Shown here one piece after another: positions 4,444 to 27,630 of a DNA stretch of 64,000 bases; positions within the stretch are counted from its first letter, which is position 1, and the number at the start of each line of letters is the position of its first letter. The translations under genes and the position numbers were made by a program. The stretch comes from Clostridia bacterium. Lineage in GTDB: Bacteria; Bacillota; Clostridia; UMGS1883. Under the pieces are notes generated by a model. The model saw nothing but the letters and a program-made list of their open reading frames with translations. It was not told the DNA's origin and did not search any database. The stretch spans positions 64,001 to 128,000 of the forward strand of contig JBJDXJ010000038.1 in the NCBI GenBank assembly GCA_051866635.1. The letters run 5' to 3'.

Positions 4444-7400
4444 GTGAAAATGAAAAAAGTAATTAGCATCCTTCTTGCGATGATCATGGTAATAGGCATT
4501 GTGCCGATTATAAACGCCGAAGAAGAAACTATTGACCTTACAGAGGGCCTTATAGCTTACTATGACTTTGCGGAAGAGGGTACAAATTTGTCAACCATTA
4601 CCGATGCATCAGGTAACGGCAACGATGCAACGGTTCTTAACACCGTTGTAGCGGGTGACGGAGGATGGAATCCGGGGGCAAACAATGTGCTTACGGTCGA
4701 AAAAGGCGTAGCCACTTTCCCGGGTATGACAAACCCCACGCCCTGGAGTACATATAACGGTGCGGCATTAAAGCTGCCTAATGATTTTAACCAAAACGTA
4801 TCTTCCTTTACGTTTTCTGCATGGATTAATGCAGACGGAAGTTATACTTACGCAAATAAGCTGACAAGGTTTTTTGATTTTGGCAACTTAGGTGCGGAGT
4901 CAAATTATGCCTATAACAGCATTTTTGCCAGATACACATCTTCTTCCGGCCTTTTGCGTATTCAGGACAGAGAGATAAATAAGTATAAGGAAACAACACT
5001 TTCAACCATGCCCTTTACAGACGCATGGGGACTTTTCACTTTCATTTATGAAAAAAACGAGGACACAGGCTATTACGAAACAAAGGTTTACGTAAATGGT
5101 GAAGAAGTAAAGGAACTTTCAACAACAAATACTTTTACAAGAGGTCTTTCAGACCTTGGCGAGCTTGACGACAATTCTAACGGACTTTTTATCGGCAGAA
5201 CCGTGTGGGCTGCAACAAACCAGAACACCACGGAAAACCCTGACTTTAAAGGCAAGATGGACGAAATCCGTATTTATAACCGTGCTCTTACAGAAAATGA
5301 AGTTAAAGAGCTTTATAATACAACAAGCCCCGTTGGCATTATTGTAATGGAAAGCTTTGAGGCGGAAGATGTTACAACTCTTGCAGGGGATTACCCCCTT
5401 TTGCCCGAAACAGTAATTGTTATTTATAACACAGGTGCCGTTAAAACAGAACAGGTTACATGGGAACTTATTTCTTCCGATAAATACGCTCATACAGGTG
5501 TTATCCAAGTGAACGGAATAACAGAAATGGGCAATCCGGTTAGCGTAAATGTTACGGTAATAAAAAAGGATATATCAACCTTAAATCAAGGCTTGGTTGC
5601 GTATTACAGCTTTGATAATGACAGTGAACTGCCCAATACAATATCGGATATGTCAGGCAACAATAACAATGCAACTGTTCATAACCTTTACAAGGAGGTT
5701 TCCTCACGTTGGGGAACGTATGTTGTACAGGCAAATATGACTGTTTCAGACGGCGTCCTTTACTTCCCCGGTGCTATGATAGGAAGCGATGCAGGTATTC
5801 CGGGAAACAGCCAGAGAAACACCTTCTACCCCGGTCCGGCAATTAAAATGCCTGACGGAATAAATGAAAATATTGAGGAATTTACATACACAGCGTGGAT
5901 TTATGCAGATACGGATTACCGTTATTCCTCAAGTATTCAAAGATTTTTTGACTTTGGTACAGAAGAGAAAAATTCTTTCTTTTACCGTTACGTTCCCACA
6001 ACAGGTGAGTCACGTTTCCAGGACAGAGGCGTAGGAGCATCAAGTGACGATGCAAATTCATTAGTATCTGCCACACTTACGGATAATCCATTTGCCGATA
6101 AATGGGCACACCTTGCCATAACATATCAGAAAAGTGATTTTGGCGAATATTATACACCACATATTTACATAAACGGCGTTGAACGCTATGAGTACGATAA
6201 TACTCTCACAACGCTTACACGCTCTTTAGCTGATTTAGGTACATCTGAAAGTTCAAATTACGGCTTCTGGATTGGTAAAACACAGTGGGCAGCCAACTCC
6301 TCAGAAAATGCAAACAATCCTGAATTTAAGGGCAAAATGGACGAAATCCGCCTTTATGACAGAGTTCTTTCGGCAGATGAAATTGCAGAGCTTTACAACA
6401 GTAAAAAGCCATCGGATGTACCTGTTGACTATGACTCAATGTCTAAAACTGTAATTAATATTGATGAAGATGTTGAATTAAGCGGAAAATATCCATCTAC
6501 AAATATGAACGGTGAAACGGTCATGATGGTTTCCTCCAACAACGGTGCGGCATATACACGCTACGGTTTAATGCGTAAAAGCGAACTTTCAGCAGGGGAA
6601 ATTACAGCTATGGCAAACTGTGAAAAAGCAGTTTTAAGCGTTTATGTAACTAAGGTTGACAACTCAGGGGAAGACGAATATTACTGCTACGGCTTAACAG
6701 GGAATAGTAACTCATGGAACGTTGACGAAATAACTTACGACAACTATTCCGAATACTTAGGCGGAAATATCTCCAACGTGGGCGTTTTTGACAATGGAGA
6801 ACTTCTTGACACCCAAAAGGCGACAGGTGGCGAAAATAACTTCTATATGCAGTGGGATGTTACTGACTTTGTAAAGGAAAATGCATCTACAGGCTTTTCT
6901 TTCCTTCTCACTTGCGGAAGTGACGTTATGTATCTTTATACATCGGAATCTAATCAGACAGATATGATGCCCCGGTTAATTATCTATCAACAGGGTACAC
7001 CTATTACAATCAGCCGTGTTGATACGGAGGGCAATCGGATTTCTTCATCCGTTGTATACGGCGTTTTGGGCGAGAGCTATACATACTCTGCCCAGGATGC
7101 TCTTGTAAGCTACAACAATTCAATTTACGTTGTAAATAAAGAATTGTCCAATCTTACAATCGATTCTGTCACAGGTGAGGATGTTATAGAGGTTGTATAC
7201 GAAAAAGCTGAAAATGTCAGCATAGAAGAAGTAAACTTAAGAACTTATGTGGGCAAAGCGCCCACACTTCCAAGGGTACTCACTGTTACAAGCGGAGAAT
7301 ACAGTGCAATTTTCCCTGTGCAGTGGAACAGCATTGATCAATCGAGCTACAGTGAAAAAGGCCAATTTTTCCCCGAAGGTAAAATCCAGGGCACTGACAT

Positions 7401-9234
7401 TGACGTAAAAGCTACTGTTACCGTATTCCCCGAATATAACGGTCAGGTAGGCGGTGACTTGACCATAACAATTTTCGCAGATGATACATACAAGGAAACA
7501 ATAACAATAGAGGGTAGCTACGGCTCAACATTTACACTTTCCGAAAAATACGAAACATACCTTGGCAACATGTATGTTCTTACAGGAATTTTAGGCAGTG
7601 CAAATGCAATTGGCGACAGCGTTGTGATGAATGAATTAAATCAGAACATTGAGCTTTCATATACAATGAAAGAAGCTGTTGAAGCAGACCTTAATGTTAA
7701 AATTAAAGCTGATGACCTTGAAGGAACAAGCTACACAATGACTGTAAGTGCCGATGTTCTCAACACAAAACTTAATGACGAAACAGTTAAGGTGGTAATT
7801 GCAGACTATAACGACAACGGTGAACTTTTAAATGCAGTAACAGAAAGTGCAGTGGTTCCAAGCCGTACAGGCGAAACTGTCACCATTGAAAAGAGCCTTG
7901 TATACAACGAAGAAAAGCATAAAAACAGTGTTGTTTTCCTTTGGAATGGAAATGCAGAGCCTTTGACGGACACTGTTAAAATATGCGATGTTAAGATTTC
8001 AAGCTATCTTCCCGATGAAGTAATTAAAATGACCCCCACATATGATGGTGCAGTGGCAACACTCAGAAAGGCAAATGACTACTGGCAGAGTAATTACGCT
8101 TACAACACATGGACAAACGGTATACATCCCGCTTTCTGGGCAAGAGCCGCATATCATACAGGCAACATGGAAGTGTACAAACTTACAGGTGATGAAAATT
8201 ACCTTCAGCACTCCATCGACTGGGCTAATTACAACAAGTGGATGGGTAACGATAACACTTCTGCCGATCCATCCGAATGGACATGGGGCTATGACCAGAA
8301 CCAGGGCAGTAACGCAGTCCTCTTCGGTGACTGGCAGATATGCTTCCAGAGCTACCTTGATATGGCTGAATTTGGCGTAGAAGATGCAAATTTAGACAGA
8401 GTGTTCCAGGTTATGGACTATCAGGTTTCAAAAGAGGAAGATGCTTTCTGGTGGTGGGCAGACTCCCTTTACATGGTAATGCCCGTCATGACAAAACTTT
8501 ATAAACATACAGGTGACGAAAAGTATCTTGATGCACTTTACAAGTGGTTCAGATATGCAAAGGAACTTATGTATGACGGCCCCGGAGGTATTCCTGCAAC
8601 TAAAGACGGTTATACAACAAGTGCATCCTTAAGAAGCGGTGCCTACTATTCGGATCCCGATAACTATGCATACCTCTTCTACCGTGATGCGAATTATGTA
8701 TATCCCTTGAACCCCAACTCAGGTCATGAAAATGAAAAGAACTTCTGGGCACGTGGCGATGGATGGGTATTTGCAGGCTTAAGTAAGGTACTCTCCGATA
8801 TGCCCGAAACTTATGAGCATTACGATGAATTCTATAACACATATATGGAAATGGCACCTGCAATTATCGCTTGTCAACAAACGGATGAATCAGGTTACGG
8901 TTTCTGGACACAGAGCATGCTTCAGAACTATCCGGTAGGCAATAACGGCAACGACGAGGGTTATGAAACAAGCGGTACAGCCTTCTTCACATATGGCTTG
9001 TTCTGGGGTATTAACAACGGCCTTCTTGACGAAGAAACATACCTTGAACCCACGCTCCGTGCATGGGGATACCTTGAAAACGTTGCACTTCACGATAGCG
9101 GTAAAGTTGGCTACGTTCAGCCCATCGGTTCCAATGCAACTCAGGCAACAGCCTATGACACAACACAAGACTTTGGTGTAGGTGCATACTTGTTGGCGTG
9201 CTGTGAAGCTGCACGTTACGCACAAAATCAGTAA
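4444..9234 (+). CDS. Secreted multidomain glycoside hydrolase: 2x LamG-like, Ig-like and DNRLRE-like modules, C-terminal GH105/Glyco_hydro_88-type domain
   Basis: Signal peptide; two GL(I/V)AYYxF...KGKMDEIRxYxRxL domains; C-terminus LFGDWQICFQ, WWWADSLYM, FWARGDGW, ETSGTAFF, FGVGAYLLA. Confidence 0.85.
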   Translation: MKMKKVISILLAMIMVIGIVPIINAEEETIDLTEGLIAYYDFAEEGTNLSTITDASGNGNDATVLNTVVAGDGGWNPGANNVLTVEKGVATFPGMTNPTPWSTYNGAALKLPNDFNQNVSSFTFSAWINADGSYTYANKLTRFFDFGNLGAESNYAYNSIFARYTSSSGLLRIQDREINKYKETTLSTMPFTDAWGLFTFIYEKNEDTGYYETKVYVNGEEVKELSTTNTFTRGLSDLGELDDNSNGLFIGRTVWAATNQNTTENPDFKGKMDEIRIYNRALTENEVKELYNTTSPVGIIVMESFEAEDVTTLAGDYPLLPETVIVIYNTGAVKTEQVTWELISSDKYAHTGVIQVNGITEMGNPVSVNVTVIKKDISTLNQGLVAYYSFDNDSELPNTISDMSGNNNNATVHNLYKEVSSRWGTYVVQANMTVSDGVLYFPGAMIGSDAGIPGNSQRNTFYPGPAIKMPDGINENIEEFTYTAWIYADTDYRYSSSIQRFFDFGTEEKNSFFYRYVPTTGESRFQDRGVGASSDDANSLVSATLTDNPFADKWAHLAITYQKSDFGEYYTPHIYINGVERYEYDNTLTTLTRSLADLGTSESSNYGFWIGKTQWAANSSENANNPEFKGKMDEIRLYDRVLSADEIAELYNSKKPSDVPVDYDSMSKTVINIDEDVELSGKYPSTNMNGETVMMVSSNNGAAYTRYGLMRKSELSAGEITAMANCEKAVLSVYVTKVDNSGEDEYYCYGLTGNSNSWNVDEITYDNYSEYLGGNISNVGVFDNGELLDTQKATGGENNFYMQWDVTDFVKENASTGFSFLLTCGSDVMYLYTSESNQTDMMPRLIIYQQGTPITISRVDTEGNRISSSVVYGVLGESYTYSAQDALVSYNNSIYVVNKELSNLTIDSVTGEDVIEVVYEKAENVSIEEVNLRTYVGKAPTLPRVLTVTSGEYSAIFPVQWNSIDQSSYSEKGQFFPEGKIQGTDIDVKATVTVFPEYNGQVGGDLTITIFADDTYKETITIEGSYGSTFTLSEKYETYLGNMYVLTGILGSANAIGDSVVMNELNQNIELSYTMKEAVEADLNVKIKADDLEGTSYTMTVSADVLNTKLNDETVKVVIADYNDNGELLNAVTESAVVPSRTGETVTIEKSLVYNEEKHKNSVVFLWNGNAEPLTDTVKICDVKISSYLPDEVIKMTPTYDGAVATLRKANDYWQSNYAYNTWTNGIHPAFWARAAYHTGNMEVYKLTGDENYLQHSIDWANYNKWMGNDNTSADPSEWTWGYDQNQGSNAVLFGDWQICFQSYLDMAEFGVEDANLDRVFQVMDYQVSKEEDAFWWWADSLYMVMPVMTKLYKHTGDEKYLDALYKWFRYAKELMYDGPGGIPATKDGYTTSASLRSGAYYSDPDNYAYLFYRDANYVYPLNPNSGHENEKNFWARGDGWVFAGLSKVLSDMPETYEHYDEFYNTYMEMAPAIIACQQTDESGYGFWTQSMLQNYPVGNNGNDEGYETSGTAFFTYGLFWGINNGLLDEETYLEPTLRAWGYLENVALHDSGKVGYVQPIGSNATQATAYDTTQDFGVGAYLLACCEAARYAQNQ

Positions 9235-9243
9235 AATATAATC

Positions 9244-9407
9244 AAAGGGGCTGTAAAAAAAGTCTAATATAAGTTAAGACCATTTGGGACAGTCCCCCTT
9301 ATGGCAAATTGGGAGACAATTTGCCAAAGAAACCTTGCGAGGTTTTGTTGGGACAGTCCCGAAATGGTCTTTTGTTATCTCAGTGCTGACTTTTTTACAG
9401 CCCCTTT
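9244..9407. mobile_element. ~165-bp non-coding MITE/REP-like element with nested inverted repeats
   Basis: Outer IR aaaggggctgtaaaaaaagtc / gacttttttacagccccttt; inner IR aagaccatttgggacagtccc / gggacagtcccgaaatggtctt; two internal hairpins. Confidence 0.7.
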
Positions 9408-9445
9408 ATATGATAAAATTATATAAGTATGGGATGGTGATTAAT

Positions 9446-10147
9446 GTGAAAGCAATACTGTTTGATATGGACGGCACCCTTCTTCCCATGGATGAAGATG
9501 AGTTTACGAAAGGGTATTTTAAGCTTTTGGCACAAAAGCTGTGTCCCTTGGGAATTGACCCTGACACGCTTATTGATGCTGTGTGGTATGGCACAAAGTG
9601 TATGTACCAAAATGACGGCAGCAAGACAAACGAGCAGGTTTTCTGGGAAAGGTTTGCCGAAAAAACGCATCTTGACTATAAACCTTTTTACGATGCATCA
9701 AACGATTTTTACTCTAATGAATTTCACAAGGCTAAAATCTTTTCTGAGGAAAACCCTCTTGCCAAAGTTGCGGTGGAAATTGCACATCAAAAAGCAGATA
9801 AGGTTGTACTTGCCACAAACCCCTTGTTTCCAATGACAGGGCAGATTTCCAGAATGAGCTGGATGAATCTTACCCCATCTGATTTTGTTTTGGTTACAAG
9901 CTATGAAAACTGTTCTTTCACAAAGCCAAATCCAAAATACTTTGAAAAGGTTTGTGAATACATATGTGTTGAACCGAAAGATTGTTTGATGATAGGCAAC
10001 AGCGAAGATGAGGATATGCACGCTGCCGCAAAATTAGGTATGGACACATATCTTGTGGAAGGGTTTGTAAAACCCTCAAAGGTTACACCTTACGAAGGAA
10101 AACGAGGCAATTTTAAAGATATGATTGAATATTTAAAATCATTATAA
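9446..10147 (+). CDS. HAD-superfamily hydrolase
   Basis: ILFDMDGTL motif I, LATNP, KPNP, MIGN..EDM; start moved to GTG 9446 because the upstream extension runs through the repeat element. Confidence 0.9.
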   Translation: MKAILFDMDGTLLPMDEDEFTKGYFKLLAQKLCPLGIDPDTLIDAVWYGTKCMYQNDGSKTNEQVFWERFAEKTHLDYKPFYDASNDFYSNEFHKAKIFSEENPLAKVAVEIAHQKADKVVLATNPLFPMTGQISRMSWMNLTPSDFVLVTSYENCSFTKPNPKYFEKVCEYICVEPKDCLMIGNSEDEDMHAAAKLGMDTYLVEGFVKPSKVTPYEGKRGNFKDMIEYLKSL

Positions 10148-10161
10148 AGGAGAGGTAGAAA

Positions 10162-11364
10162 ATGGCACTTACATATGAATCCGTTGTTGAAAAAATAAGA
10201 AGAGCGGACACTTACTGGCAGAAAAATTTTGACTTTGTTGACTGGAACGGGGGAGCACATCCTGCTTTTTGGGACAAGGCGGCGTACCACACAGGCAATA
10301 TGGAAGTTTACAAGCTGTTAGGCGATAAAGACCTTTTGCAGTATACAATTGACTGGGCAAATTTCTGCAACTGGAAGGGTAACGATTCAGACGCTGACCC
10401 TTCTGAATGGTTCTGGGAATATAACCAGACACAGGGGTCTGCCGCTGTTATTTTCGGCGACTGGGAAATCTGTTTCCAGGTATATATTGATCTTTACAAT
10501 GCAGGCGTTGATGGTGCAACAATTGACCGAGTAATGTATGTAATAAATCATCAGATTGAAAAGGATGTTGACAACTACTGGTGGTGGGCAGATGCTCTTT
10601 ATATGGTGATGCCTGTTTTCACAAAACTCTATAAATTGACAGAAGATGAAAAGTATCTTGATGCACTTTATAAATATTTCCGCTACGCAAAGGAACTGAT
10701 GTACGACGGCAGGGGCGGCATCCCCACAAATAAGGACGGATATACAACTTCCGCAAGCATTTTGGAAGGTGCAAGTTATTCAGACCCCTCTGATTATAAA
10801 AACCTTTTCTTCCGTGATGCAAACTTTGTTTATCCATTAAAGCCTAATCCCGGTCACGAAAAGGAAAAGAACTTCTGGGCACGTGGCAACGGCTGGGTAT
10901 TTGCCGGACTATGCAAGGTGCTTGCCGATATGCCAAAAACTTATAAGCACTATGATGAGTTCTTGACTACATACAAGGAAATGGCTCCTGCCATAATTGC
11001 TTGTCAGCTTAAGGACGGCGACGGCAACGGCTTCTGGACACAAAGTATGCTCCAAAATTACCCCACAGGCAATAACAATAACGACTATGGCTATGAAACA
11101 AGCGGCACTGCTTTCTTCACATACGGTCTTTTCTGGGGCATTAATAACGGAATATTGGATGAAGAAACTTACACAGACTATGCACTTGCAGGCTGGAAAT
11201 ACCTTTCTGAGGTTGCCCTTCACCCTGATGGCAAGGTAGGCTATGTGCAGTACATCGGTTCTAATGCAACTGAGGCTATGAGCTATGACACAACACAGAA
11301 TTTCGGTGTGGGTGCATTTTTATTGGCAGGATGCGAAGCGGCAAGGTATGCACAGAATAATTAA
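10162..11364 (+). CDS. Stand-alone GH105/Glyco_hydro_88-type hydrolase, no signal peptide
   Basis: IFGDWEICFQ, WWWADALYM, FWARGNGW, ETSGTAFF; collinear paralogue of the C-terminal domain of 4444..9234. Confidence 0.88.
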   Translation: MALTYESVVEKIRRADTYWQKNFDFVDWNGGAHPAFWDKAAYHTGNMEVYKLLGDKDLLQYTIDWANFCNWKGNDSDADPSEWFWEYNQTQGSAAVIFGDWEICFQVYIDLYNAGVDGATIDRVMYVINHQIEKDVDNYWWWADALYMVMPVFTKLYKLTEDEKYLDALYKYFRYAKELMYDGRGGIPTNKDGYTTSASILEGASYSDPSDYKNLFFRDANFVYPLKPNPGHEKEKNFWARGNGWVFAGLCKVLADMPKTYKHYDEFLTTYKEMAPAIIACQLKDGDGNGFWTQSMLQNYPTGNNNNDYGYETSGTAFFTYGLFWGINNGILDEETYTDYALAGWKYLSEVALHPDGKVGYVQYIGSNATEAMSYDTTQNFGVGAFLLAGCEAARYAQNN

Positions 11365-11585: not shown

Positions 11586-12437
11586 ATGAAGTTATTAACT
11601 AATGAGCTAATCCAAAAATTCAAAATTTACTTAACAAATGAAGAAAAAGCCCAGGCAACTATTGATAAATACTTGCGTGATATATACGCATTTATGGCTT
11701 GGCTTTGCGGCAAGGAAGTATGTAAGGAATATGTTTTGCAATATAAAAAAGAAATCTTAGAAAATTATGCTCCTGCAAGTGTGAATTCAATGCTTTCATC
11801 GCTCAATGCGTTTTTTGCTTATAATGAGTGGTATGAACTTAGAGTAAAATCCGTTAAAATTCAAAAGCAAATATTTGCAAGCAAGGACAGAGAACTTACC
11901 AAGACTGAGTATGAAAGACTATTGAATGCGGCGAAGAATAAGAAAAATGAAAGGCTGTATTACCTGATGCAGACTATTTGCAGTACGGGCTTGAGAGTTT
12001 CGGAATTAAAATTCATTACTACAGATGCGGTTCGATGTGGACAAGCAACCATTAACTGCAAAGGAAAAATGAGAATAGTTATCTTACCTAAGCAGCTTTG
12101 CAAAATGCTTACCATTTATGCAAAAGCAAACAATATAAAAAGCGGCTCCGTATTTGTAAGCAAAAACGGGAAGCCGCTTAACAGATCAAATATATGGTCC
12201 GATATGAAAAAACTCTGTGAATCTGCCGGAGTATCTGCTGAGAAAGTATTTCCTCATAATTTGAGACATCTTTTCGCAAGAACTTATTACTCTCTCCAAA
12301 AGGATGTAGTACGACTTGCTGATATTTTAGGTCATTCAAGTGTAAATACTACAAGGATTTATACTATGGAAAGCGGAGAGGTTCACAGAAAGCAAATTCA
12401 AAAATTAGGATTACTCCTGTGTAGCAATAAATTATAA
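11586..12437 (+). CDS. Tyrosine recombinase/integrase (Xer-like, probable invertase)
   Basis: Catalytic set intact: TGLRVSE (R), CKGK (K), HNLRH (HxxR), LGHSS (H), RIYT (Y). Confidence 0.95.
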   Translation: MKLLTNELIQKFKIYLTNEEKAQATIDKYLRDIYAFMAWLCGKEVCKEYVLQYKKEILENYAPASVNSMLSSLNAFFAYNEWYELRVKSVKIQKQIFASKDRELTKTEYERLLNAAKNKKNERLYYLMQTICSTGLRVSELKFITTDAVRCGQATINCKGKMRIVILPKQLCKMLTIYAKANNIKSGSVFVSKNGKPLNRSNIWSDMKKLCESAGVSAEKVFPHNLRHLFARTYYSLQKDVVRLADILGHSSVNTTRIYTMESGEVHRKQIQKLGLLLCSNKL

Positions 12438-12460
12438 CATAATTTGTATTATGTAGTGAC
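12431..12460. repeat. Recombination site 1 (Xer/dif-like): attataacataa-TTTGTA-ttatgtagtgac
   Basis: 12-6-12 layout overlapping the recombinase stop codon; the 18-bp core 12437-12454 is the exact reverse complement of 12690-12707. Confidence 0.85.
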
Positions 12461-12510
12461 ATTGTTGATGTATTCTCATTGTAGGAAGATACACAATATC
12501 AAATTTCACA

Positions 12511-12558
12511 CAAAAACAAGACCAATGATATTAGAAATTATTACATTGGTCTGTTTTT
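12511..12558. terminator. Bidirectional terminator-like hairpin inside the predicted invertible segment
   Basis: aaaaacaagaccaatg ... cattggtctgttttt (one bulge), with A and T runs at the ends. Confidence 0.5.
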
Positions 12559-12622
12559 CGTTGCCTCTTTTTGTTTGAATATCTGAAAAAGATATAAAAT
12601 TATGTAAATTAACTGCAAATTA

Positions 12623-12651
12623 TTGACTTTTATATATTCACATGCTATAAT
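12623..12651 (+). promoter_or_regulatory. Sigma-A promoter within the predicted invertible segment
   Basis: TTGACT-17 bp-TATAAT with TGn extended -10 (catgcTATAAT), facing 12848. Confidence 0.85.
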
Positions 12652-12683
12652 GGTAGCGTATAATTAGGTTTATTGTCTGTGCT

Positions 12684-12713
12684 ATTATAACATAATACAA
12701 ATTATGTAGTGAC
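12684..12713. repeat. Recombination site 2: attataacataa-TACAAA-ttatgtagtgac
   Basis: Arms identical to site 1; spacer is the reverse complement of the site-1 spacer. Confidence 0.85.
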
Positions 12714-12847
12714 TGTCAGCAGATAAAACTATGTATATAATATTAAGAATTCAAAGGGGGTTATGCTATGGAAAGGCTTGATAGCAGTTAGTACCGTATG
12801 ACCATGAAAACTCAACAACTAAAACACTCAGAAAGGAAAATGTAAAC

Positions 12848-15800
12848 ATGAAATCTAAAAAATTTACAGCTTGGATATTGGTCATGGCAATGCTTGTTAC
12901 AATGTTACCAAGCTCGCTTGCCTTAGCGACAGGTGATCATACAACACCGGCACCATATCCGGTAATTGTGACTGATGTATTTAGTGAAATGACTAATGAT
13001 ATCAGTGGTGTGGATAAAGGTACAGATTTAGACTTGACAGGAACAACAAATGATGCACTTCCGACTGTTAATTCAGCAGTTGGAGCGGAGACTGTACTTG
13101 ATGGTGTAGATGGTACAGTATACCATAATGCAGACAGCGAAATTAACAACATGAGAAGAAAACAAATTCTCACATTCGTTGCAAAATCTCAGGATGACAG
13201 CAACTTTATTAACAGCTCTACAAGCACGGGTGTGGCTGAACATGCTGTTGAAATCGCTTATTTGGATACAGACAGAGAACCTTTGGAAATAGATTTAGAC
13301 AGTGAGGAATTTGAGGTTATTGGCAGTGGAGATTGGAGCAACGCATGGATAGATCTTTCTCAAGACGTTCAGCAGACAGACCGTACACTGGAAACATTCC
13401 TTACAAAAGAGCTTGAGGGAATCAATCCCGAACTTTTGACCGCTGCACAGCTTTTTGCAACAGGTGATATGGTATCCTTCATGATTTACAATGTTATCAG
13501 AAGCGATTTTGCCGGTTATTTAAGAATTAAGATTACAGATAACAACGGCAACACCACAGTGCAGGACTATCCTATTGTAGCAGATGGTCAGTATCCCGCT
13601 GTTTCTATCAGCACTTCAACTTACAAAAATCCCGTAGGTGAAAATGTTGAAAATAGTGCAGTAACAACTGTTGCAGAAAATACATTTATTAATGAAATGG
13701 ATTTTGTAACTGTTATGGAAGATACAGAGGAAAACAAAGAAGAAAACGAAACCGATAATATTCATAAAAGCTACAGATGGCATAATCTTGATAAAGATGC
13801 ATTACAGAATGCTTTGAATTGGGAAGACGAAAACTATAAGCCGGAAGATATTTGGGCTATGGGTGATATTTCCATAGACGAAATAAAAATTTCAGACTTA
13901 TTAGTAACTTCCGGAATTGAAAGTGTTAAGTATTCGGTTGCAAATTACGGATTAAAAGAAAATGTAACTCCATCTACATTAGAAGGAACAATTGAACTTA
14001 CATATGATCCGGCAACAAAAACTTGTTCGGCAGGAACACCTATTGTAATCAGTAATGAAGGCTTTAATGTTTTGGCAATTACAGCAGTTGACAATTCAGG
14101 ACTTAAAACAACAAACAGATACTATTTCTACATGGATACTACAGCACCCAAAGCAAAGTTTGACCTTGTAGAATTGGATAAGAACGTTGTTTCCTTATTT
14201 ACTGATGCTGATACAGTAACAAACAGACAGCAAGCTATTGATATGAGTGAATCAGATGATGTAACGGCAAGCGTTGATGTGATTTCCGGGCTTGAAGATG
14301 CAACAGCAGGCGAAACAGAAAATAATAAGATGTATCAGTATCGCTTACTTGCAACAAAAGCAGGTGCAACAGAAGGCGGAAATGTACCTGATGGTTATAC
14401 AGCAACTGTTCTCGACAAAGAAGGAAATGATTTAAGCGGTTGGAAAATTTGGACCGGCGAAACAGAAACCCCTGTTATAGATAAAGAATTTGACGGTATT
14501 GTTCAGGTACGTGTTCAGGACAGAGCAGGTAACTGGTCACCTATCGTTTCAGTAACAAGTGATGGAAAAGAAACAATTATTACAGATAACACTAACCCTG
14601 TAATTGATGTTAAGGAATATGCCCTTGACACCAATGGCGATACAATCGGCAATACAGATGCAGAAATAATTGGCGGCACTGCTACAGATATTTTAATTAC
14701 TTCAGCAAGAGTAACTGAAACAACTGACGGTGAAATTGAAAATGAGGTTATTCATACAATCACAGGTGATGTGGCACCTTGGATTAATGATTCTGCAGTA
14801 TTAGAAGTAAAGATTACTGATGAGGATCTTGCTAATGAAATTCGTTCATCAGGTCTTAAAAAAGGTCAGATTAATGTAACAGCAGAATTTAATGCCGAAA
14901 ATGAAAATAAAAAGGTTAAAATCTGGAACAAAAATGGTGTTGACAAGAAAAATGTTGATGATTCTTTCAACCTTACAGAAGACTACATTTTCGGAACAGA
15001 AACCGACAAGGATTTAACATTCTATATTGAATATGAAGGAACAGGTGTTGTTGATATCACGGTTTCTGTTAAAGACCAGGCAGATGTAAATGATGGCGAT
15101 GTTTTCTCAACAATTTATACAACTCAGCTTAGAGTTGATAAAATCAATCCTTACATTATATATAAGGGATACGATATCACAGATAAAGCCAATGAAGATT
15201 TGTTGAAAGCAAACCATGAAAAAGTTGATTACGAAGTTCGTAATATGCCTTGGGGACCGAACAGCCAGGTTCTTGAAGTTGTTGTGAAAGATGATGATAT
15301 TACTCCGATACAGTCTAAGACTAAAAATATAAGATTTAACGCTGACAAAGAATTAGACTTGTATGAATACGTTGGTGGTGTATTCACAAAGATTAAGACT
15401 TATGCCGCAGGTAATGATAATGTAGTATCACTTAGTGATTGTGAAGAACTTGCTAATGAAAAGTATGAATCCAATGTTGGTTATAAGTTCTATCTTGTAT
15501 ATGAGGGTACAGGCATTGCAAAAGTTGAATTCTTTGCAGATGATTCAGCTACAGCACCCAACGTAAGAGATTATCCTTCTATAGCAACTGCTGCTGAGGC
15601 AGAACCTGTATTATACGATGCAATGCTCCGCGTTGATAAAATTAACCCTGAAATTAAAAACGTAAAACTTGTTGAAACAGATATAGACGTTGAAGATAAA
15701 GGTTGGAGTCTCTTCTCTTTCAACGAAACAAATGTTGAAGTTAATACAAGAAAGCAGATGAAGATAACATTTGAGATTGTTGATGAAAACACAACAACAG

Positions 15801-18800
15801 AACAGTCCGGTGTTAATATTCAGAACGAAAAGATATCAGGCGTAGATTTAATTGATGTATATAAAAATTATGTAGAAAAAGATAAAACACATCTTTATGA
15901 TAATAAGCCTACAACATATACAACAGATGATGTAAATGACAAGGCAGTAGATCCTAACATTGATTATATCCTTCTTCCTGTAGAAGCGGGTTCAATTAAT
16001 GGCACAGGCGGCAATTTTGAAGAAGCTGCATCTGCATCTAATGAAGCTATTGAAGCACTCGTAGCTGAATATCTTGATAAGGTATACAATGCAGATGGTG
16101 ATAAGTGTGAATGGAAGAAAGCATCATGGAAAGATGGCGGAATTGTTGTTCCTGATGAATTCCAGGGTGCAATCGTTATCAGAACAATTGACCGTGTAGG
16201 TAATATTGATTACGCAGAAGCTATCACATTTGTTGCTGAATCAAGAGAAGCATTAATTGACTTTAATCCTCAGAACGGATATATTTGGTCTCAAAACAAT
16301 TATGGTTGGTCAAAACGTGATTACGATTATGTTGAAATTCGAGTAAAAGATGATAACGAAGACAAAGTAGATGCTTGGCTCGAAAATGTGTTTATCAGTG
16401 TGACTGACCTTGAAGGTAACGACATCTCAACAAAGGAAACAGTTAAGTTTGCTCCAAATGATCCTTCATTAAAGATTGATCCTTCTGCATATACTTATGT
16501 TTCTTTAAGTGATTTCACAAATGAAGCTGCATACGGTTATGATGTAATTGATGCATACGGTCTTGTTGAAAAACTTTATCGCGATAGCGAAGGATATATC
16601 CACCTTGGTTATGTAAGAGTAGCTGAAAGTGCTCAGATTAAGGTAACCATTTTCGATAAGGCTAAACATAACGATGTTGAATATACAGGTAATAAGACAA
16701 CAGGTATCTGGACATCAAGAATAGACAGAACAGCACCTACTGTAAATGTTAAGGTTGTTGCAATTCCGGCAAGCGAACACGGTGCTGCTGACAACAATAA
16801 GGTTGTTCTTGGTTTGAAAGCCGATATTATTGATAATGAATCCGGTGTTGCACCTTATATTACTGATGGTACTTACAATGTTTATACTCCTGAAAATGTT
16901 CCCGCATCCGGAGTATTTGCCTCTGATAAATCTTTCTTATATAAAGTAACAAATGATGCAGATGCTGAAGTTGAAAGATTTGATAGTGGAACATTCAACA
17001 CAAGACAGTATGAACTTCCCGGTTTACAGTATGCTTTGATTCCTGAAAATGGCAAATTGGAAAATGTTAAACCGTGGAATTTTGAAACTGATCCTAAAAC
17101 CGTTTATGATGAAAACGGATACAACGGAAACATGGGTGCAACATATGTATGGCATAACTATGTTGATGACAAAACACCTATCCTTCCGGAAGAAGGCTTT
17201 GATGGCTACATTGTTGTAAGAGCTATTGACAAAGCAGGCAATATCACTGTTATTGGTTGTGCTCCCACAATTGATATTGAAGCAGCAGAAGGTTGGCAGA
17301 AAGAAACACAGCTTATCCATGTTAAGGCTTCTCCCAAAACAGGAAATATTACAACTGTAGAATATATGGGTAATAACAATCTTCTTACTCATGATGAAGC
17401 GGGCAATTTGGTAACAAGAAATATTTATGCCGAGGCAATCAGTGGTGCAGGTACATTCATTGAAGTTACAGAAGAAGGTATTACAGATGTTATAATTACA
17501 GCTTCTGAAGAGTATACAGCACAGCAAACAGTTAAGGCAGCTTCCGATGAAAGAAATGCAACTTGGGAAGGCTCCATGATTGTTGGTAATGCTACACCTT
17601 CCGGATATGAAGATTTCAAATTCCAAACTGTTCAGGTGAAGATTGATAAGACAGCTCCTACGTTTGAATTTACATTAGTTGATGCAGCAAATGAAGAAAT
17701 AGTTACTTCTTCTAGAGGATTTGGAATTAAAGTAGCAGACGGTGAGGAAATTGTAGATCCTATTCCTAACTTACCTGATGTTGTCGGTTATCGTTCACAT
17801 ATTTCTTCCGGAATTGCAAAGGTTGAATATTGCGTAGCGAGTGAAGGAATGGAAGAATGGCATGAAGTTGATAAAGCAACATGGGAAACAGGTGTTATTA
17901 AAGCATATGAAGACAATGCAGCTATAACAGGTACTGTTAAAGTTCGTGTTACAGATAATGCCGGTAACGTAACTGAAAAATCCAAGTCTATCAATATTGA
18001 TAGTGCAATACCGATTATCAGCATCTCCAAGTCTTATGATTCAAAATGGAGCAATAAGCCTGTAGAAGTGAAAGTAACAGTTTCTTCAGGTGCAGAATTC
18101 TCTGACATTAGTAGCGTTTATTATACAGTAACCGGTGGAACAGAAGGTGAACTTCCTGTTACAGGCGGTACAATCACAATAGGCCAAGAAGGTGTGTATG
18201 AAGTTAGTGTAAAAGCATTAACAAAGAGCGGAAAATCTCTTGAAGCATGGACAGATGTTCATATTGACTGGACAGCACCTGATTTTGAACTTGAATTAAC
18301 GGATGGCGAGGATGTTCTTGCAGACGGTGCTAAGACAGGAAATGCAGTTACAGTAAATGTTAAGGATATTATTGACAACGTATCCGGAGTTAAGTCTATT
18401 GAATGGTGCAAGGTAGCAGAAGGCTCTGTAAATGAGCAGTGGAATAACATAACATCTGCTAAAACTGCAACAATAGAAAAAGCAGAAGCATTTACAGGAA
18501 CAGTAAAGGTTCGCGTAACAGATGAAGCAGGTAATGTTACTGTTAAGACTCAAAGAGTTATCCATAACGATGACGTGGCTATGCCTGAGTTAGTAGGTGT
18601 TGCCTCCGGTTCTTGGAAGATTGACAACGATACAGTAACAGTTGCATCTTATGCCGACGATAAAGTTAAGGTTCGTTATTCAAATAACGGAGAACCTTGG
18701 ACAGATGTAATTGAAAACTCTATCACGCTTGTTCCCGGAGCTAACCGCATCAGACTTCAGGCCTACAGAGAAGATTGCGGCTGTGAAAGTGATGTAAGAA

Positions 18801-20545
18801 CTTATGTAATTAATTACGAACCTATTGAAAATACACCTATTATTGATATTAGACATGATTACGGTAATAAGTACATGACTGTTGGCGGTTCAGATTTTGA
18901 AATTGTAAATTCTACAAATGAATCGGTAACTGTTAGCCTTGTGCCTAATAAAGGAACATGTGAAGCTGATATCCAAAGTGTAGTATACGACTTATATCTT
19001 AATGGTGTGGCTACAGAAAAAAATAAAAATATTTATCTTCCCATAACAGGTGGTACTTTAACGCTTTCTGAAGAAGGCGAATGGGCAATCGGAAATGTAA
19101 GAATAACAACAGAAAGCGGTAAAGAGTATAATCTTCTTCCTGATTATCAAGTAGTTGCTTTAATAGACAAGACTGCTCCTGTATTTGATAATGCAGAAAC
19201 AAAACTTGTTGGTATAGGCGGTGAATTGACATTATTTGGATTGGCTGAACCTACAAATGAGCAACAGAAATTAACAGCAAAAGCTAAAGATAATTGCATA
19301 ACATATAAAGGCGGAGCATCTACTGTTTTATTCTATGAATATGCATTGCTTGAAAAAGGCATGATTGAGCCTAATTGGGAACCATTGAAGTATGAATGGA
19401 ATGACACAAAAGTTGAAACCGATGCAATTATAACAACATCTTTTGAAGGAACAGTTCTTGTTAGAGTTACAGACGTAGCAGGTAACAGCTCCGTAAAATC
19501 CATTCAGGTATTTGCAGAAGGAACCAAACCTGAAATCTCAATTACAGCTCCTTCATCTTGGCAGACAGAAGATGTTATGATCAAGGTTGATGTAGTTGAT
19601 AAAGGATTATCTTCTACAATAAAGAGTGTTACATATGAATTATTAAATGGTGCTCATAAGGAAAAAGGTGAGCTTTCGTCAATAGGTGGTTCTATCGAAA
19701 TCACACGAGAAGGAATAACTAAAGTTAAAATAACTGCAGAAGATTATGCCGGAAACATTGAAACAATAGATACTTGTGAAGTAAAGATTGATAAAACTGC
19801 TCCTGAATACTCAGGCATAGTTGAGTTGCTTGGTGTTTATAATGAACACGAAATTCCCGAAAGTAAATGGAACGTTATCCATGACGGTTGGACATATAAC
19901 CATAATGTAAGCCTTGAAGGAATTGAAGATACTCATTCGGGAATTAAGAAAGTGAATATTACTTTTACAGGTGATGACGGTGCCGTAACTGAAACTACAC
20001 TTAATTCAAGTCAGACAAGTAGCAGCTTCTCTGAAAACGGCAAGTATGATCTTACTTTGATTGACAATGCAGGTAATGTTAGAAATATCAGCTTTACAAT
20101 CAATAAAGATTTACAGAATGTAATCAATGTCATTGGTATAGATGAATTCGGTAAGCTGAATATCGCAGTTACAGATGGTGATGATATGCTTACGTTCTAT
20201 AAGAAAGAAAACAGCGAAAGCAAATACACCAAGATGTATAATGGTATAACAAACCAGTTAATTGATGGTAAGACCGGCGTACGTTATATCTACGGACAGA
20301 ATGATGCAGGTAAGAAATCAAATACATTGTATGTAATTGTTGCTCCAAGTACTGAATATGGAATTTCATTAATGAGTCTTAGCTCGATACCTAACAGATA
20401 TTTGAATATTGATGCTGAAGGCGAAAAGGTTACTGTTACGAAGATTGATGAAATTTTCAATCCCGGAATCAATGAAAACATCTCCGTTGGTTCTGTTGTT
20501 GAAATCAACGAAGATGGTATATATTCAATTACAACTAATGATTAA
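12848..20545 (+). CDS. Giant secreted Ig-like repeat protein (adhesin-like), 2565 aa, no recognisable anchor
   Basis: Signal peptide MKSKKFTAWILVMAML; many DxAGN ... IDxTAP/VDKINP repeat signatures; acidic; no SLH, LPxTG or C-terminal TM segment. Confidence 0.8.
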   Translation: MKSKKFTAWILVMAMLVTMLPSSLALATGDHTTPAPYPVIVTDVFSEMTNDISGVDKGTDLDLTGTTNDALPTVNSAVGAETVLDGVDGTVYHNADSEINNMRRKQILTFVAKSQDDSNFINSSTSTGVAEHAVEIAYLDTDREPLEIDLDSEEFEVIGSGDWSNAWIDLSQDVQQTDRTLETFLTKELEGINPELLTAAQLFATGDMVSFMIYNVIRSDFAGYLRIKITDNNGNTTVQDYPIVADGQYPAVSISTSTYKNPVGENVENSAVTTVAENTFINEMDFVTVMEDTEENKEENETDNIHKSYRWHNLDKDALQNALNWEDENYKPEDIWAMGDISIDEIKISDLLVTSGIESVKYSVANYGLKENVTPSTLEGTIELTYDPATKTCSAGTPIVISNEGFNVLAITAVDNSGLKTTNRYYFYMDTTAPKAKFDLVELDKNVVSLFTDADTVTNRQQAIDMSESDDVTASVDVISGLEDATAGETENNKMYQYRLLATKAGATEGGNVPDGYTATVLDKEGNDLSGWKIWTGETETPVIDKEFDGIVQVRVQDRAGNWSPIVSVTSDGKETIITDNTNPVIDVKEYALDTNGDTIGNTDAEIIGGTATDILITSARVTETTDGEIENEVIHTITGDVAPWINDSAVLEVKITDEDLANEIRSSGLKKGQINVTAEFNAENENKKVKIWNKNGVDKKNVDDSFNLTEDYIFGTETDKDLTFYIEYEGTGVVDITVSVKDQADVNDGDVFSTIYTTQLRVDKINPYIIYKGYDITDKANEDLLKANHEKVDYEVRNMPWGPNSQVLEVVVKDDDITPIQSKTKNIRFNADKELDLYEYVGGVFTKIKTYAAGNDNVVSLSDCEELANEKYESNVGYKFYLVYEGTGIAKVEFFADDSATAPNVRDYPSIATAAEAEPVLYDAMLRVDKINPEIKNVKLVETDIDVEDKGWSLFSFNETNVEVNTRKQMKITFEIVDENTTTEQSGVNIQNEKISGVDLIDVYKNYVEKDKTHLYDNKPTTYTTDDVNDKAVDPNIDYILLPVEAGSINGTGGNFEEAASASNEAIEALVAEYLDKVYNADGDKCEWKKASWKDGGIVVPDEFQGAIVIRTIDRVGNIDYAEAITFVAESREALIDFNPQNGYIWSQNNYGWSKRDYDYVEIRVKDDNEDKVDAWLENVFISVTDLEGNDISTKETVKFAPNDPSLKIDPSAYTYVSLSDFTNEAAYGYDVIDAYGLVEKLYRDSEGYIHLGYVRVAESAQIKVTIFDKAKHNDVEYTGNKTTGIWTSRIDRTAPTVNVKVVAIPASEHGAADNNKVVLGLKADIIDNESGVAPYITDGTYNVYTPENVPASGVFASDKSFLYKVTNDADAEVERFDSGTFNTRQYELPGLQYALIPENGKLENVKPWNFETDPKTVYDENGYNGNMGATYVWHNYVDDKTPILPEEGFDGYIVVRAIDKAGNITVIGCAPTIDIEAAEGWQKETQLIHVKASPKTGNITTVEYMGNNNLLTHDEAGNLVTRNIYAEAISGAGTFIEVTEEGITDVIITASEEYTAQQTVKAASDERNATWEGSMIVGNATPSGYEDFKFQTVQVKIDKTAPTFEFTLVDAANEEIVTSSRGFGIKVADGEEIVDPIPNLPDVVGYRSHISSGIAKVEYCVASEGMEEWHEVDKATWETGVIKAYEDNAAITGTVKVRVTDNAGNVTEKSKSINIDSAIPIISISKSYDSKWSNKPVEVKVTVSSGAEFSDISSVYYTVTGGTEGELPVTGGTITIGQEGVYEVSVKALTKSGKSLEAWTDVHIDWTAPDFELELTDGEDVLADGAKTGNAVTVNVKDIIDNVSGVKSIEWCKVAEGSVNEQWNNITSAKTATIEKAEAFTGTVKVRVTDEAGNVTVKTQRVIHNDDVAMPELVGVASGSWKIDNDTVTVASYADDKVKVRYSNNGEPWTDVIENSITLVPGANRIRLQAYREDCGCESDVRTYVINYEPIENTPIIDIRHDYGNKYMTVGGSDFEIVNSTNESVTVSLVPNKGTCEADIQSVVYDLYLNGVATEKNKNIYLPITGGTLTLSEEGEWAIGNVRITTESGKEYNLLPDYQVVALIDKTAPVFDNAETKLVGIGGELTLFGLAEPTNEQQKLTAKAKDNCITYKGGASTVLFYEYALLEKGMIEPNWEPLKYEWNDTKVETDAIITTSFEGTVLVRVTDVAGNSSVKSIQVFAEGTKPEISITAPSSWQTEDVMIKVDVVDKGLSSTIKSVTYELLNGAHKEKGELSSIGGSIEITREGITKVKITAEDYAGNIETIDTCEVKIDKTAPEYSGIVELLGVYNEHEIPESKWNVIHDGWTYNHNVSLEGIEDTHSGIKKVNITFTGDDGAVTETTLNSSQTSSSFSENGKYDLTLIDNAGNVRNISFTINKDLQNVINVIGIDEFGKLNIAVTDGDDMLTFYKKENSESKYTKMYNGITNQLIDGKTGVRYIYGQNDAGKKSNTLYVIVAPSTEYGISLMSLSSIPNRYLNIDAEGEKVTVTKIDEIFNPGINENISVGSVVEINEDGIYSITTND

Positions 20546-20612: not shown

Positions 20613-21965
20613 ATGAAAAAAATTATTTCTTGCATTCTTGCAGTTACAATACTGTGTTGCAGTGCTGTCGCTTTTGCTGATGAAAAAGAGGTTGTAATTG
20701 ATACTGAAGTGCCTGTATTTAAAGATTTAGTGGATGGTTCAAGCTATTCCGGAAGCAAAACAGTTGAAATTGCAGATTTAAGCCAAGTTAACTGTGTTTT
20801 AATGAAATCCGGAAAAGGAACAGTTAGTTTTGCCGGCAAAACATTTGAAGGTTATACGAAAGTTGCGGAAGAATATAATCTTGATTGTATAAACTACACT
20901 GAGGTAGCTACTGTTTCTGATGTAGGTTCGTATATGATATATGCAACAGACATCTACAATCACGATATTGCTGTAAGATTTACAATAACCAAATCAGGCG
21001 AAGGCACCGGCGGTGGCGGAGGCGGTGGTAGTGACACTACAACAGTTAAACAACCATACGCTAACGGCGATCCTGATAATGTAAAAGGAACTGTGACAGC
21101 AGGTAAAAAAATCACATTAGATACTGATACAGGAAATGCGAAGATATATTATACAACCGATGGAACGACCCCCACAAGTAAAAGCAGGCGTTATGATGCA
21201 AACATCGGCATCATTTTGAAGGAAGGTCAGATCCTGAAAGCAGTTGCGATTAAGGGCGGCATATCAAGTGAAGTCTCCGAGTGGATATGTACTTCATTCA
21301 AAAAGGGTGAATCTGTTGTTAAAGATGTGTTAGAAACAGAAGAACATATTGTTTATATGTTCGGTTATCCGGATAAAACCTTCGGACCAAACGACAATAT
21401 GACACGTGCAGAAGTAGCAACAATGTTCACAAGACTTATGAAGGATAAAATGGATAGTGATGTCGTATATGAATCTTCATTTTCAGATGTTACGCCGGAT
21501 GCATGGTATTATAACTATGTGGGATATATAGAAAAGTTCGGAATCATCACCGGTTATGAAGATGGTACGTTCAGACCTCAAAACACTATAACAAGAGCAG
21601 AATTTGTTACTATGGCAAGTCGTTTCGCAACTGTCAGCAAAGAGTTTGAGTGTGACTTTACAGATGTTACAACAGAACATTGGGCATATGATTACATTGC
21701 ATTTGCCGCCGGCAACAGTTGGATTGGTGGCTATGAGGATAACACATTCAGAGCCGATAATACAATAAGCAGAGCAGAAGTTGTAACTATTGTAAATAAT
21801 ATGCTTATCAGAAATGCTGATAAAGAATATGTGAATGCTAATAAAGCATTGCTTACATTGTTTGCTGATGTGAACGAAGAACATTGGGCTTATTATAATA
21901 TCATTGAGGCAACAAATGAACATACTTATAAAGTAAATGACAATGTGGAAAAATGGAATCAATAA
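20613..21965 (+). CDS. SLH-anchored protein: Ig-like module, Gly linker, Fn3-associated/chitobiase-type domain, 3x SLH
   Basis: Signal peptide; IYYTTDGTTP; GYPDKTFGP..TRAEVA, GYEDGTFRP..TRAEF, GYEDNTF..SRAEVV. Confidence 0.88.
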   Translation: MKKIISCILAVTILCCSAVAFADEKEVVIDTEVPVFKDLVDGSSYSGSKTVEIADLSQVNCVLMKSGKGTVSFAGKTFEGYTKVAEEYNLDCINYTEVATVSDVGSYMIYATDIYNHDIAVRFTITKSGEGTGGGGGGGSDTTTVKQPYANGDPDNVKGTVTAGKKITLDTDTGNAKIYYTTDGTTPTSKSRRYDANIGIILKEGQILKAVAIKGGISSEVSEWICTSFKKGESVVKDVLETEEHIVYMFGYPDKTFGPNDNMTRAEVATMFTRLMKDKMDSDVVYESSFSDVTPDAWYYNYVGYIEKFGIITGYEDGTFRPQNTITRAEFVTMASRFATVSKEFECDFTDVTTEHWAYDYIAFAAGNSWIGGYEDNTFRADNTISRAEVVTIVNNMLIRNADKEYVNANKALLTLFADVNEEHWAYYNIIEATNEHTYKVNDNVEKWNQ

Positions 21966-21978
21966 GGAGGTATGGAAG

Positions 21979-23082: not shown

Positions 23083-23105
23083 TTATAAAAGAAAGGGAGA
23101 TTTAT

Positions 23106-25076: not shown

Positions 25077-25145
25077 TAATATATTAACGATACGGAAAGG
25101 CGGCATACTATGCCGTCTTTCCAAAAATAGAAAGGAGTTCTTAAC

Positions 25146-27260: not shown

Positions 27261-27269
27261 TTTAAAATC

Positions 27270-27308
27270 AGTGTGGTTGCTTCATTAATTTGAGGCAACC
27301 ACACTTTA
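27270..27308 (+). terminator. Terminator closing the SLH gene run
   Basis: agtgtggttgcttca-ttaatt-tgaggcaaccacact followed by tta. Confidence 0.65.
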
Positions 27309-27558
27309 TAATGAGGTAATAATGAAAAATCAAGACGGGGTGCGGACATATTCTTGGACTTTAAAAGGAGTAAATAAATATGTCGCACCCCGTCTCGGCT
27401 GTTCGTTCTTTGGCTCTTTAATCGTATCTACAGAGGCTCATTGTCAAGTAAACCATGGAATAAATGAGAAAACTCAAGGATTGTTACTATTTATTCCGTA
27501 TTTTGCAGCTTTTCCTGACTGTTTTTTTGAGAGGACGCTATTTTATCACTACATTTTA

Positions 27559-27587
27559 TTGACAAATCCTGTTTTCTTCTATAGAAT
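27559..27587 (+). promoter_or_regulatory. Sigma-A promoter for the large LRR gene
   Basis: TTGACA-17 bp-TAGAAT. Confidence 0.7.
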
Positions 27588-27630
27588 AAAATACAGATAA
27601 GTATTGGAAAATTTGAAAGGATGGTGCAAT

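Follow-up and report, generated by a model that had tools for sequence, protein, structure and literature searches.

A putative invertible promoter in a Clostridia bacterium, with recombination sites that would exchange two arm classes between ON and OFF states

What would recombination do between two neighboring sites whose arms are repeated in direct order and whose spacers are inverted, and would the enzyme face the same substrates in both resulting states? This question is raised by positions 64,001 to 128,000 of contig JBJDXJ010000038.1 (GenBank assembly GCA_051866635.1, a Clostridia bacterium), a stretch of 64,000 nucleotides hereafter called the window. It contains a gene for a 283-aa Xer-like tyrosine recombinase (11586-12437, + strand), directly followed by two such sites, the TAA stop codon of the gene (12435-12437) falling within the first of them. 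As argued below, the locus is very probably a phase-variation switch, in which the adjacent recombinase would invert a promoter segment of about 253 bp, the sites being mixed in the ON state and sorted in the OFF state.

The left site (12431-12460) and the right site (12684-12713), both read on the + strand, are built in the same way: a 12-bp left arm, arm A (ATTATAACATAA), a 6-bp spacer, and a 12-bp right arm, arm B (TTATGTAGTGAC). Each arm is identical and in the same direction in both sites; the stop codon of the recombinase gene lies in arm A of the left site. In parallel reading, 26 of the 30 positions are identical and the four mismatches all lie inside the central 6 bases, where the spacers, TTTGTA on the left and TACAAA on the right, are exact reverse complements (6/6 matches when inverted vs. 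2/6 in parallel). The arms border the spacer with ACATAA and TTATGT, which are mutually complementary. The central 18 bases of the two sites (12437-12454 and 12690-12707) are therefore perfect inverted repeats of each other, 235 bp apart, and direct repetition is limited to the 6 outermost bases at either end (ATTATA and AGTGAC). Read towards the spacer, all four arms have ACATAA in common, and their outer 6 bases fall into two classes, A (ATTATA) and B (GTCACT). The 18-mer has two exact matches in the window and no other within 3 mismatches, with 0.27 expected from shuffles, and its exact matches in the whole 2.33-Mb genome are at the two sites only. Chance does not account for this pair. The description of the sites in the original prediction, direct arms around inverted spacers, is exact by comparison of both sites.

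When the segment was inverted in silico, every cut point within the 18-bp core gave one identical product, whose left and right sites both have fully palindromic 12-bp arms; neither of the present sites has such arms. The crossover lies within this core. Inversion exchanges the inner arms, one A and one B, and the outer-left arm stays A and the outer-right arm stays B. Hence, the ON state has two identical mixed sites (A+B, A+B) and the OFF state two different symmetric sites (A+A, B+B), the window carrying one arm of each class per site, which recombination sorts into like pairs. The crossover product worked out by hand in the original prediction (A/A on the left and B/B on the right, with palindromic arms) was reproduced by the scripted inversion, and its statement that the enzyme meets different substrates in ON and OFF can be read straight from the sequence. 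Its suggestion that the assembled state is itself a recombination product holds only trivially, as the two states interconvert; what is derived, according to the phylogeny described below, is the identity of the arms itself.

According to the proposed mechanism, the recombinase would pair the two sites via their spacers, which match only in inverted alignment. Strand exchange inside the 6-bp spacer, as known from tyrosine-recombinase chemistry, would then invert the segment exchanged from spacer to spacer (about 12446-12698, ~253 bp) and, by swapping the inner arms, convert the mixed pair of the ON state into the sorted A+A and B+B sites of the OFF state. Since the spacers are homologous over 6/6 positions in the inverted alignment and over 2/6 in parallel, inversion and not excision would be expected.

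The segment carries a sigma-70-type promoter on the + strand (12623-12651), predicted by consensus match only (TTGACT, a 17-nt gap and TATAAT with an extended TG; 11/12 consensus matches). It points through the right site at the gene starting at 12848. As this promoter faces the downstream gene, the window would show the promoter switch turned ON, with a surface-protein gene under its control. The product of the regulated gene (12848-20545, +) is 2565 aa long, begins with a signal-peptide-like stretch, contains an OmpL47-type beta-barrel domain and weakly matches an Ig-like domain; it is predicted to be secreted or located at the surface. An inverted repeat at 12510-12561, with an A-run before and a T-run after, folds as RNA into a hairpin (-15.7 kcal/mol, z = -3.1) whose stem is kept in three other species. 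Lying between the recombinase gene and the promoter, it probably terminates transcription in both directions, although the list of a simple terminator scan does not include it. In the ON state, the internal promoter would read through the right site into the gene of the 2565-aa protein; in the OFF state, it would be aimed back at the recombinase gene, the internal hairpin blocking read-through. An Rfam search of 12300-12950 gave nothing but a microRNA-model match on the hairpin, which was rejected as below threshold (21.8 vs. 68 bits).

The flipped arrangement is present in other species. A DNA search of 40 related genomes gave one genome (G023) with both flanks aligned directly (86-87% identity), in which the stretch matching window positions 12437-12707 aligns on the opposite strand (82% identity). 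In this genome, both arms of the left site are of class A, with a single letter differing from the prediction, and both arms of the right site are of class B. A protein-based scan of the species genomes recovered the G023 locus again, together with two further orthologs. All three other species with an ortholog (L033, L034, and L035, with recombinases 90, 87, and 82% identical to that of the window; L014, equal to L034 over the compared stretch, was counted once) have collinear flanks and an inverted interior, which aligns with that of the window (12461-12683) only after reverse-complementing. Compared with the predicted symmetric forms, the three species match at 29 of 30 letters in the left site (A/A) and at 27 of 30 in the right site (B/B). 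These are the junction types that the original prediction had proposed to look for in related genomes. The promoter is also conserved in the three species, there on the opposite strand and facing the recombinase gene. In L034 and L035, the gene following the switch encodes an ortholog of the 2565-aa protein, with 55-59% identity over stretches of about 800-870 residues; the sequence of L033 ends before the downstream gene. The locus thus has the features of an inverton, i.e., inverted repeats bounding a short segment beside a recombinase gene and an outward-reading consensus promoter inside, and both orientations are found between species, the window being ON and L033, L034, and L035 inverted.

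The direct order of the arms could instead drive excision of a 253-bp circle, since the sites are 26/30 identical in parallel. This outcome is extremely improbable, given that the spacers match at only 2/6 positions in that alignment vs. 6/6 when inverted, and that all three other species are inverted with no fused single site in any of them. The excision reading was rejected for these reasons. More broadly, no single-site (excised) form was seen among 79 genome-contig stretches carrying the 18-bp core. Only three of these stretches (L132, L133, and L174, on the contigs of L034, L035, and L033, respectively) are ortholog loci, and the remaining paired core matches carry other arms. The inverted interiors and sorted junctions of the three species support recombination along the orientation of the spacers, as the original prediction had it. 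Among metagenome contigs, no stretch matched the exact 24-base left-site pattern, and a protein-based scan of them gave 141 relatives, the best at 77% identity, with no ortholog of the window switch.

The comparison of the four species also indicates how the arms have changed. Over these species, 11 bases of arm A and 9-10 bases of arm B do not vary, and the interior beside the inner B arm is poorly conserved. The outer-left A arm reads ATTATA in the three other species and in the window, and the inner A arm GTTATA in the three species and ATTATA in the window. The inner B arm reads TACACT and the outer-right B arm GTTACT in the three species, and both read GTCACT in the window. In the recombinase tree, which stands in for the history of sites located within 300 bp of the gene, the window lies inside the group (L035, (window, L033, L034)), with supports of 99/97 and 100/99, and an AU test rejects the other three species as a clade (p = 0.0016). 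Because the window is nested within the group, parsimony assigns four changes of outer-arm letters to its lineage, and the perfect identity of its arms is derived. Each of the four changes makes arms of the same class identical; the chance that four random substitutions among the 24 outer-arm positions would all be homogenizing is about 1.9e-5. Identity of the arms within a class, with the classes staying distinct, is thus kept up by either selection or conversion.

The switch belongs to a wider family. The same genome encodes three paralogous recombinases (74, 61, and 49% identical to that of the window), each followed by its own pair of ACATAA-N6-TTATGT sites, which lie 210-314 bp apart and have inverted spacers. 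It also has three tyrosine recombinases that are more distant. The pattern CATAA-N6-TTATG has 22 matches in the genome, 8 of which are the eight switch sites, and a reversed control pattern has 7. Relatives of the recombinase are encoded by 293 stretches in public genomes and 141 in metagenomes. In 183 related loci, a site pair directly follows the gene in 127 of the 191 recombinase hits and is missing in 64, in many of these because the contig is cut at that point. Over the 308 arms of 77 distinct single-pair switches, information reaches position -10, with a consensus of T-A-C-C at -10 to -7. Position -8 is C in 88% of arms and T in arm A; position -7 is C in 56% of arms, A in arm A and T in arm B. 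In a FastTree analysis of 106 rows, which excludes those without a site pair or a full-length frame, the arms were all alike in 38, of ordinary two-class layout in 1, and unclear in 44. The remaining rows have the swapping layout, in the sorted state in 16 and in the mixed state in 7. In most switches of the family, the four arms look alike.

The swapping layout is not confined to the window group (spacer TTTGTA). A separate, well-supported clade with spacer TCGAAA (about 15 rows) has the same two-class layout with different letters: class P (AATACC) is the family consensus, and class Q (CTTGCA or CCTGCA) is strongly deviant. Two pairs of sister loci in this clade, L074/L089 and L095/L200, are in opposite states, which suggests frequent flipping. 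Taking the TCGAAA clade together with L028, mixed sites were called ON in 4 cases and undecided in 4, with none OFF; sorted sites were OFF in 8 and undecided in 2, with none ON, these relatives not being independent of one another. The TCGAAA clade agrees with the TTTGTA group in that its mixed sites are associated with ON and its sorted sites with OFF.

Could such a layout influence the direction of switching? It is possible, although our confidence stays somewhat short of even, that A and B bind the recombinase unequally. The sorted OFF state would then contain one poor site and be left more slowly, giving the switch a built-in OFF bias. Two observations were counted for unequal binding, namely the class differences at the family-constrained positions -8 and -7, and the combination in the TCGAAA clade of one consensus and one deviant class. 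As a further speculation, the OFF promoter, reading antisense into the recombinase gene, could lower the supply of recombinase and reinforce the lock. The site logic resembles that of an engineered system, in which recombination by Cre between lox66 and lox71 gives a poorly bound lox72 and a loxP site, making the reaction one-way (described in an excerpt of PMC8116776, whose reference list cites the use of lox66/lox71 for one-way inversion). There too, the starting sites are mixed and recombination sorts the arms into like pairs; unlike lox66/lox71, the window layout is natural, conserved across species, served by an Xer-like enzyme and built on a 6-bp spacer, so that the two are likened by site logic and not by homology. 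In its full form, the proposal would be a natural counterpart of lox66/lox71, with concerted arm classes, an ON-to-OFF reaction sorting a good and a poor site, and a self-locking OFF state in at least two clades. We put this forward tentatively, as a rather unlikely reading: if it were true, the arm letters would act as a heritable dial for switching bias, and return to ON would be rare.

Several observations weigh against this chain of interpretation. The window genome contains a single orientation, with one copy of each site, and the two states were observed in different species, which is compatible with a fixed evolutionary inversion. A search for sequencing runs covering positions 11586-13600 returned none. 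Scored against the family consensus, the window arms are similarly off-consensus (A 1.8 and B 1.7, vs. a family median of 4.9). Departure from consensus is a weak proxy for affinity, and each recombinase may have co-evolved with its own arms. The ON/OFF calls come from a simple hexamer promoter score. Among 101 single-pair loci, whatever their arm design, 63 are OFF, 14 ON, and 24 undecided. Since OFF predominates regardless of design, its excess does not single out the swapping layout; the use of ON/OFF assembly counts as a test of bias was rejected on this ground, selection on expression being a confounder as well. For the excess of within-site symmetry in the OFF frame, a sign-flip test gave p = 0.003 when each switch was a unit and p = 0.075 when each spacer group was; leaving out the TTTGTA and TCGAAA groups gave p = 0.22. 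Two sorted-type loci elsewhere in the tree (L218 and L219) were called ON. A family-wide rule of symmetric sites in the OFF state, carried by few clades, was rejected, and the association is claimed for TTTGTA and TCGAAA only.

The first of these points would also fit a dead switch, in which a single ancient inversion, now fixed, separates the window from the other species and the sites are mere remnants: the evidence from the ortholog group is between species only, and the window genome is in a single orientation. We consider this very unlikely. The recombinase frame is intact with its catalytic motifs present, the 18-bp core is perfect, and the arms are invariant while the regulated gene has diverged to 55-59% identity. 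Besides, close loci of the sister design sit in opposite states, and a Clostridia inverton group of like size, probably of the same broad family, shifts in culture according to an excerpt of PMC11892184.

A more serious contender accepts the switch and denies the bias. The arm layout would have no kinetic effect and would be a by-product of homogenization within near-palindromic sites of a switch that is mostly OFF. Replication template switching at near-palindromes, a process familiar from bacterial mutagenesis, or another form of short-patch conversion would equalize the arms within each site and leave the two sites different from one another. All four changes on the window lineage raise identity within a class, as such a process would do, and the Q arms of the TCGAAA clade are usually identical within a genome and differ between genomes (CCTGCA, CTTGCA, CCTGCG, TTTGCA). 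OFF is the commonest assembled state in the family and the one with palindromic sites, and in the right site of the OFF frame the outer arm halves are perfectly matched in 16 of 60 distinct switches, vs. 3-5 of 60 for other pairings. However, the palindromy of the window sites stops at exactly 12 bp in both, which resembles a protein footprint more than a random tract. In arm B of the window, letters of the inner and outer arms of the other species are combined as a mosaic, which would require two separate conversion events, and the class differences lie at family-constrained positions, where they are unlikely to escape the notice of the enzyme. This by-product explanation is quite possible, if short of probable; it accounts for the origin of the layout and leaves room for a kinetic consequence.

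The recombinase has an N-terminal SAM-like domain and a Pfam Phage_integrase domain (PF00589) at residues 103-261 (104.3 bits vs. a cut-off of 27.1), placing it in the tyrosine recombinase family. Its best NCBIfam matches are XerA, XerD, and XerC, every one below its cut-off (141.3 vs. 220, 131.1 vs. 329.6, and 109.6 vs. 335.15 bits, respectively; XerS, 61 vs. 267), so that it does not belong to any of these equivalogs. The models of tyrosine-type DNA invertases (Fim-type) score lower still (37.5 vs. 221 and 27.5 vs. 222 bits), and the protein is not of the Fim type. The closest solved structure is XerA (4a8e), with which the motifs GLRVSEL, HNLRH, GHS, and IYT align; we take these columns to be the catalytic Arg, His-x-x-Arg, His/Trp, and Tyr residues, respectively. 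The genome has no arrangement of a single dif site per chromosome for this family, each of the four paralogs having two inverted sites directly after its own gene.

In chromosomal Xer systems, dif consists of 11-12-bp arms around a 6-bp spacer and is shared by XerC and XerD. The window sites have the same arm-spacer layout and XerA, XerH, XerS, and XerC/XerD include the best protein matches. Unlike these systems, the recombinase falls below the NCBIfam cut-offs and has four paralogs per genome, and the sites are paired and inverted around a promoter, with no single dimer-resolution site. The dif-like layout, together with the Xer-like nature of the recombinase, suggests a division of labor in which the adjacent recombinase would act on one arm class and a second protein, a paralog or the host chromosomal Xer, on the other, in the manner of XerC/XerD. 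The three paralogs and the three more distant tyrosine recombinases would provide candidates for this second protein, and the outer-right arm of the switch of one paralog (on contig C31; ATTACT+ACATAA) resembles arm B. We nevertheless regard this as unlikely. Each paralog adjoins its own switch with its own spacer, and most switches of the family have four near-identical arms (38 of 106 rows all alike), which fits a single protein. The nearest solved relatives, XerA and XerH, act alone as single recombinases. By geometric reasoning, the subunits cleaving the same strand would always sit on unlike arms here, unlike XerC/XerD at dif.

The switch can be set beside known invertible elements. A close analogy for state-dependent substrates is fimS of E. 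coli (FimB/FimE), where a promoter segment is likewise inverted by a neighboring tyrosine recombinase and where differing half-sites give different ON and OFF substrates, the stated basis of the ON-to-OFF bias of FimE (in an excerpt of PMC6083910). Unlike fimS, which has two recombinase genes, the window has one, Xer-like and not Fim-type, and its sites are regular arm-spacer-arm units with two clean classes and one state with two perfectly symmetric sites. The element is also comparable to invertons of other Clostridia. In C. difficile, one recombinase serves several distant switches; in the window genome, every switch has its own adjacent recombinase, the systems being compared by description. 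The RecV switches of that species (cwpV, flgB, and others), as far as they are described in excerpts of PMC2784873, PMC5903667, and PMC12282940, resemble that of the window: a regulatory segment in front of genes for surface structures or motility lies between short inverted repeats and is flipped by a tyrosine recombinase. Inverton group 139, a Clostridia group from a defined gut community (tyrosine invertase group 35), is 254-256 bp long, has a recombinase within 5 kb, and shifts orientation in culture (excerpt of PMC11892184). It probably belongs to the same broad family as the window switch, being likened by size and neighboring recombinase, and the same excerpt makes no mention of arm classes or state-dependent site composition. 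A literature search in a limited collection found no paper on this site family or arm layout, the motif search giving unrelated matches. As an element, the switch is of an ordinary kind, an inverton with a tyrosine recombinase in front of a surface-protein gene of a gut Clostridia genome; what sets it apart is its site design, which is conserved and actively maintained.

Such promoters matter because they decide which surface structures gut bacteria display, and the rate and direction of flipping set the mix of cell types in a population. To our knowledge, the determinants of directional bias are unknown for almost all invertons from microbiome surveys, fimS being the textbook exception. The clean layout described here, with two arm classes, one recombinase, and about 250 bp, makes directional bias directly testable. 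If the bias were true, arm composition in genomes could predict the default state of a switch, and the element might be used as a compact natural module for one-way or biased inversion.

Around the switch, the upstream region (4444-11364) contains glycan-degrading genes, among them a gene whose 1596-aa product combines GH88, laminin-G, and sialidase N-terminal domains, and another GH88 gene. As the upstream GH88 gene does not adjoin the switch in other species, the conserved module consists of the recombinase, the switch, and the large protein. Beyond the regulated gene (20613-33555), a run of genes encodes surface proteins with S-layer-homology, BspA-type leucine-rich-repeat, and von Willebrand factor A domains. 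Between the right site and the 2565-aa gene, the 5′ leader contains a mini-ORF of seven codons (12768-12791; MERLDSS, stop), preceded by a G-rich ribosome-binding-like stretch read by eye. The peptide is identical in L034 and has one change in L035, and the mini-ORF may encode a leader peptide or belong to a conserved leader RNA. A second promoter-like site on the + strand (12713-12741; CTGTCA, 17 nt, TATAAT; 10/12 matches) lies just outside the switch in a stretch mostly conserved in the other species; if it were active, the OFF state would be leaky and not silent.

Other features of the family were noted. The 74%-identical paralog (contig C31, 33598-34443, L007) has one TAA inside its match. 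Several relatives end their recombinase gene on the TAA that belongs to the ACATAA of the site (offset -5), and the TAA of the C31 paralog may likewise be a normal stop read through by the search and not a sign of a broken gene. At least six contigs from other Clostridia genomes (L129, L130, L149, L166, L190, and L191) end within ~90 bp of a site with the 18-bp core; assemblies tend to break in this way where a sample holds both orientations. The identical core, including TTTGTA, also occurs with different outer arms as inverted pairs 250-270 bp apart in distant cultured Clostridia (Anaerofilum hominis, Lientehia hominis, and Guopingia tenuis; L144, L146, L172, and others) and in Lachnospiraceae genomes, and the spacer TTTGTA is therefore reused widely across genera.

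Finally, many switches of the TCGAAA clade (L074, L089, L021, L026, L027, L096, L097, L105, and L110) have, within the invertible segment, a third site that shares the spacer and lies 32-33 bp from one end, and L205 has more than three sites. In L089 the sites are at 3843, 3876, and 4138, and L074 and L089 look like two states of one three-site switch, in which the third site could permit alternative inversions or nested control.

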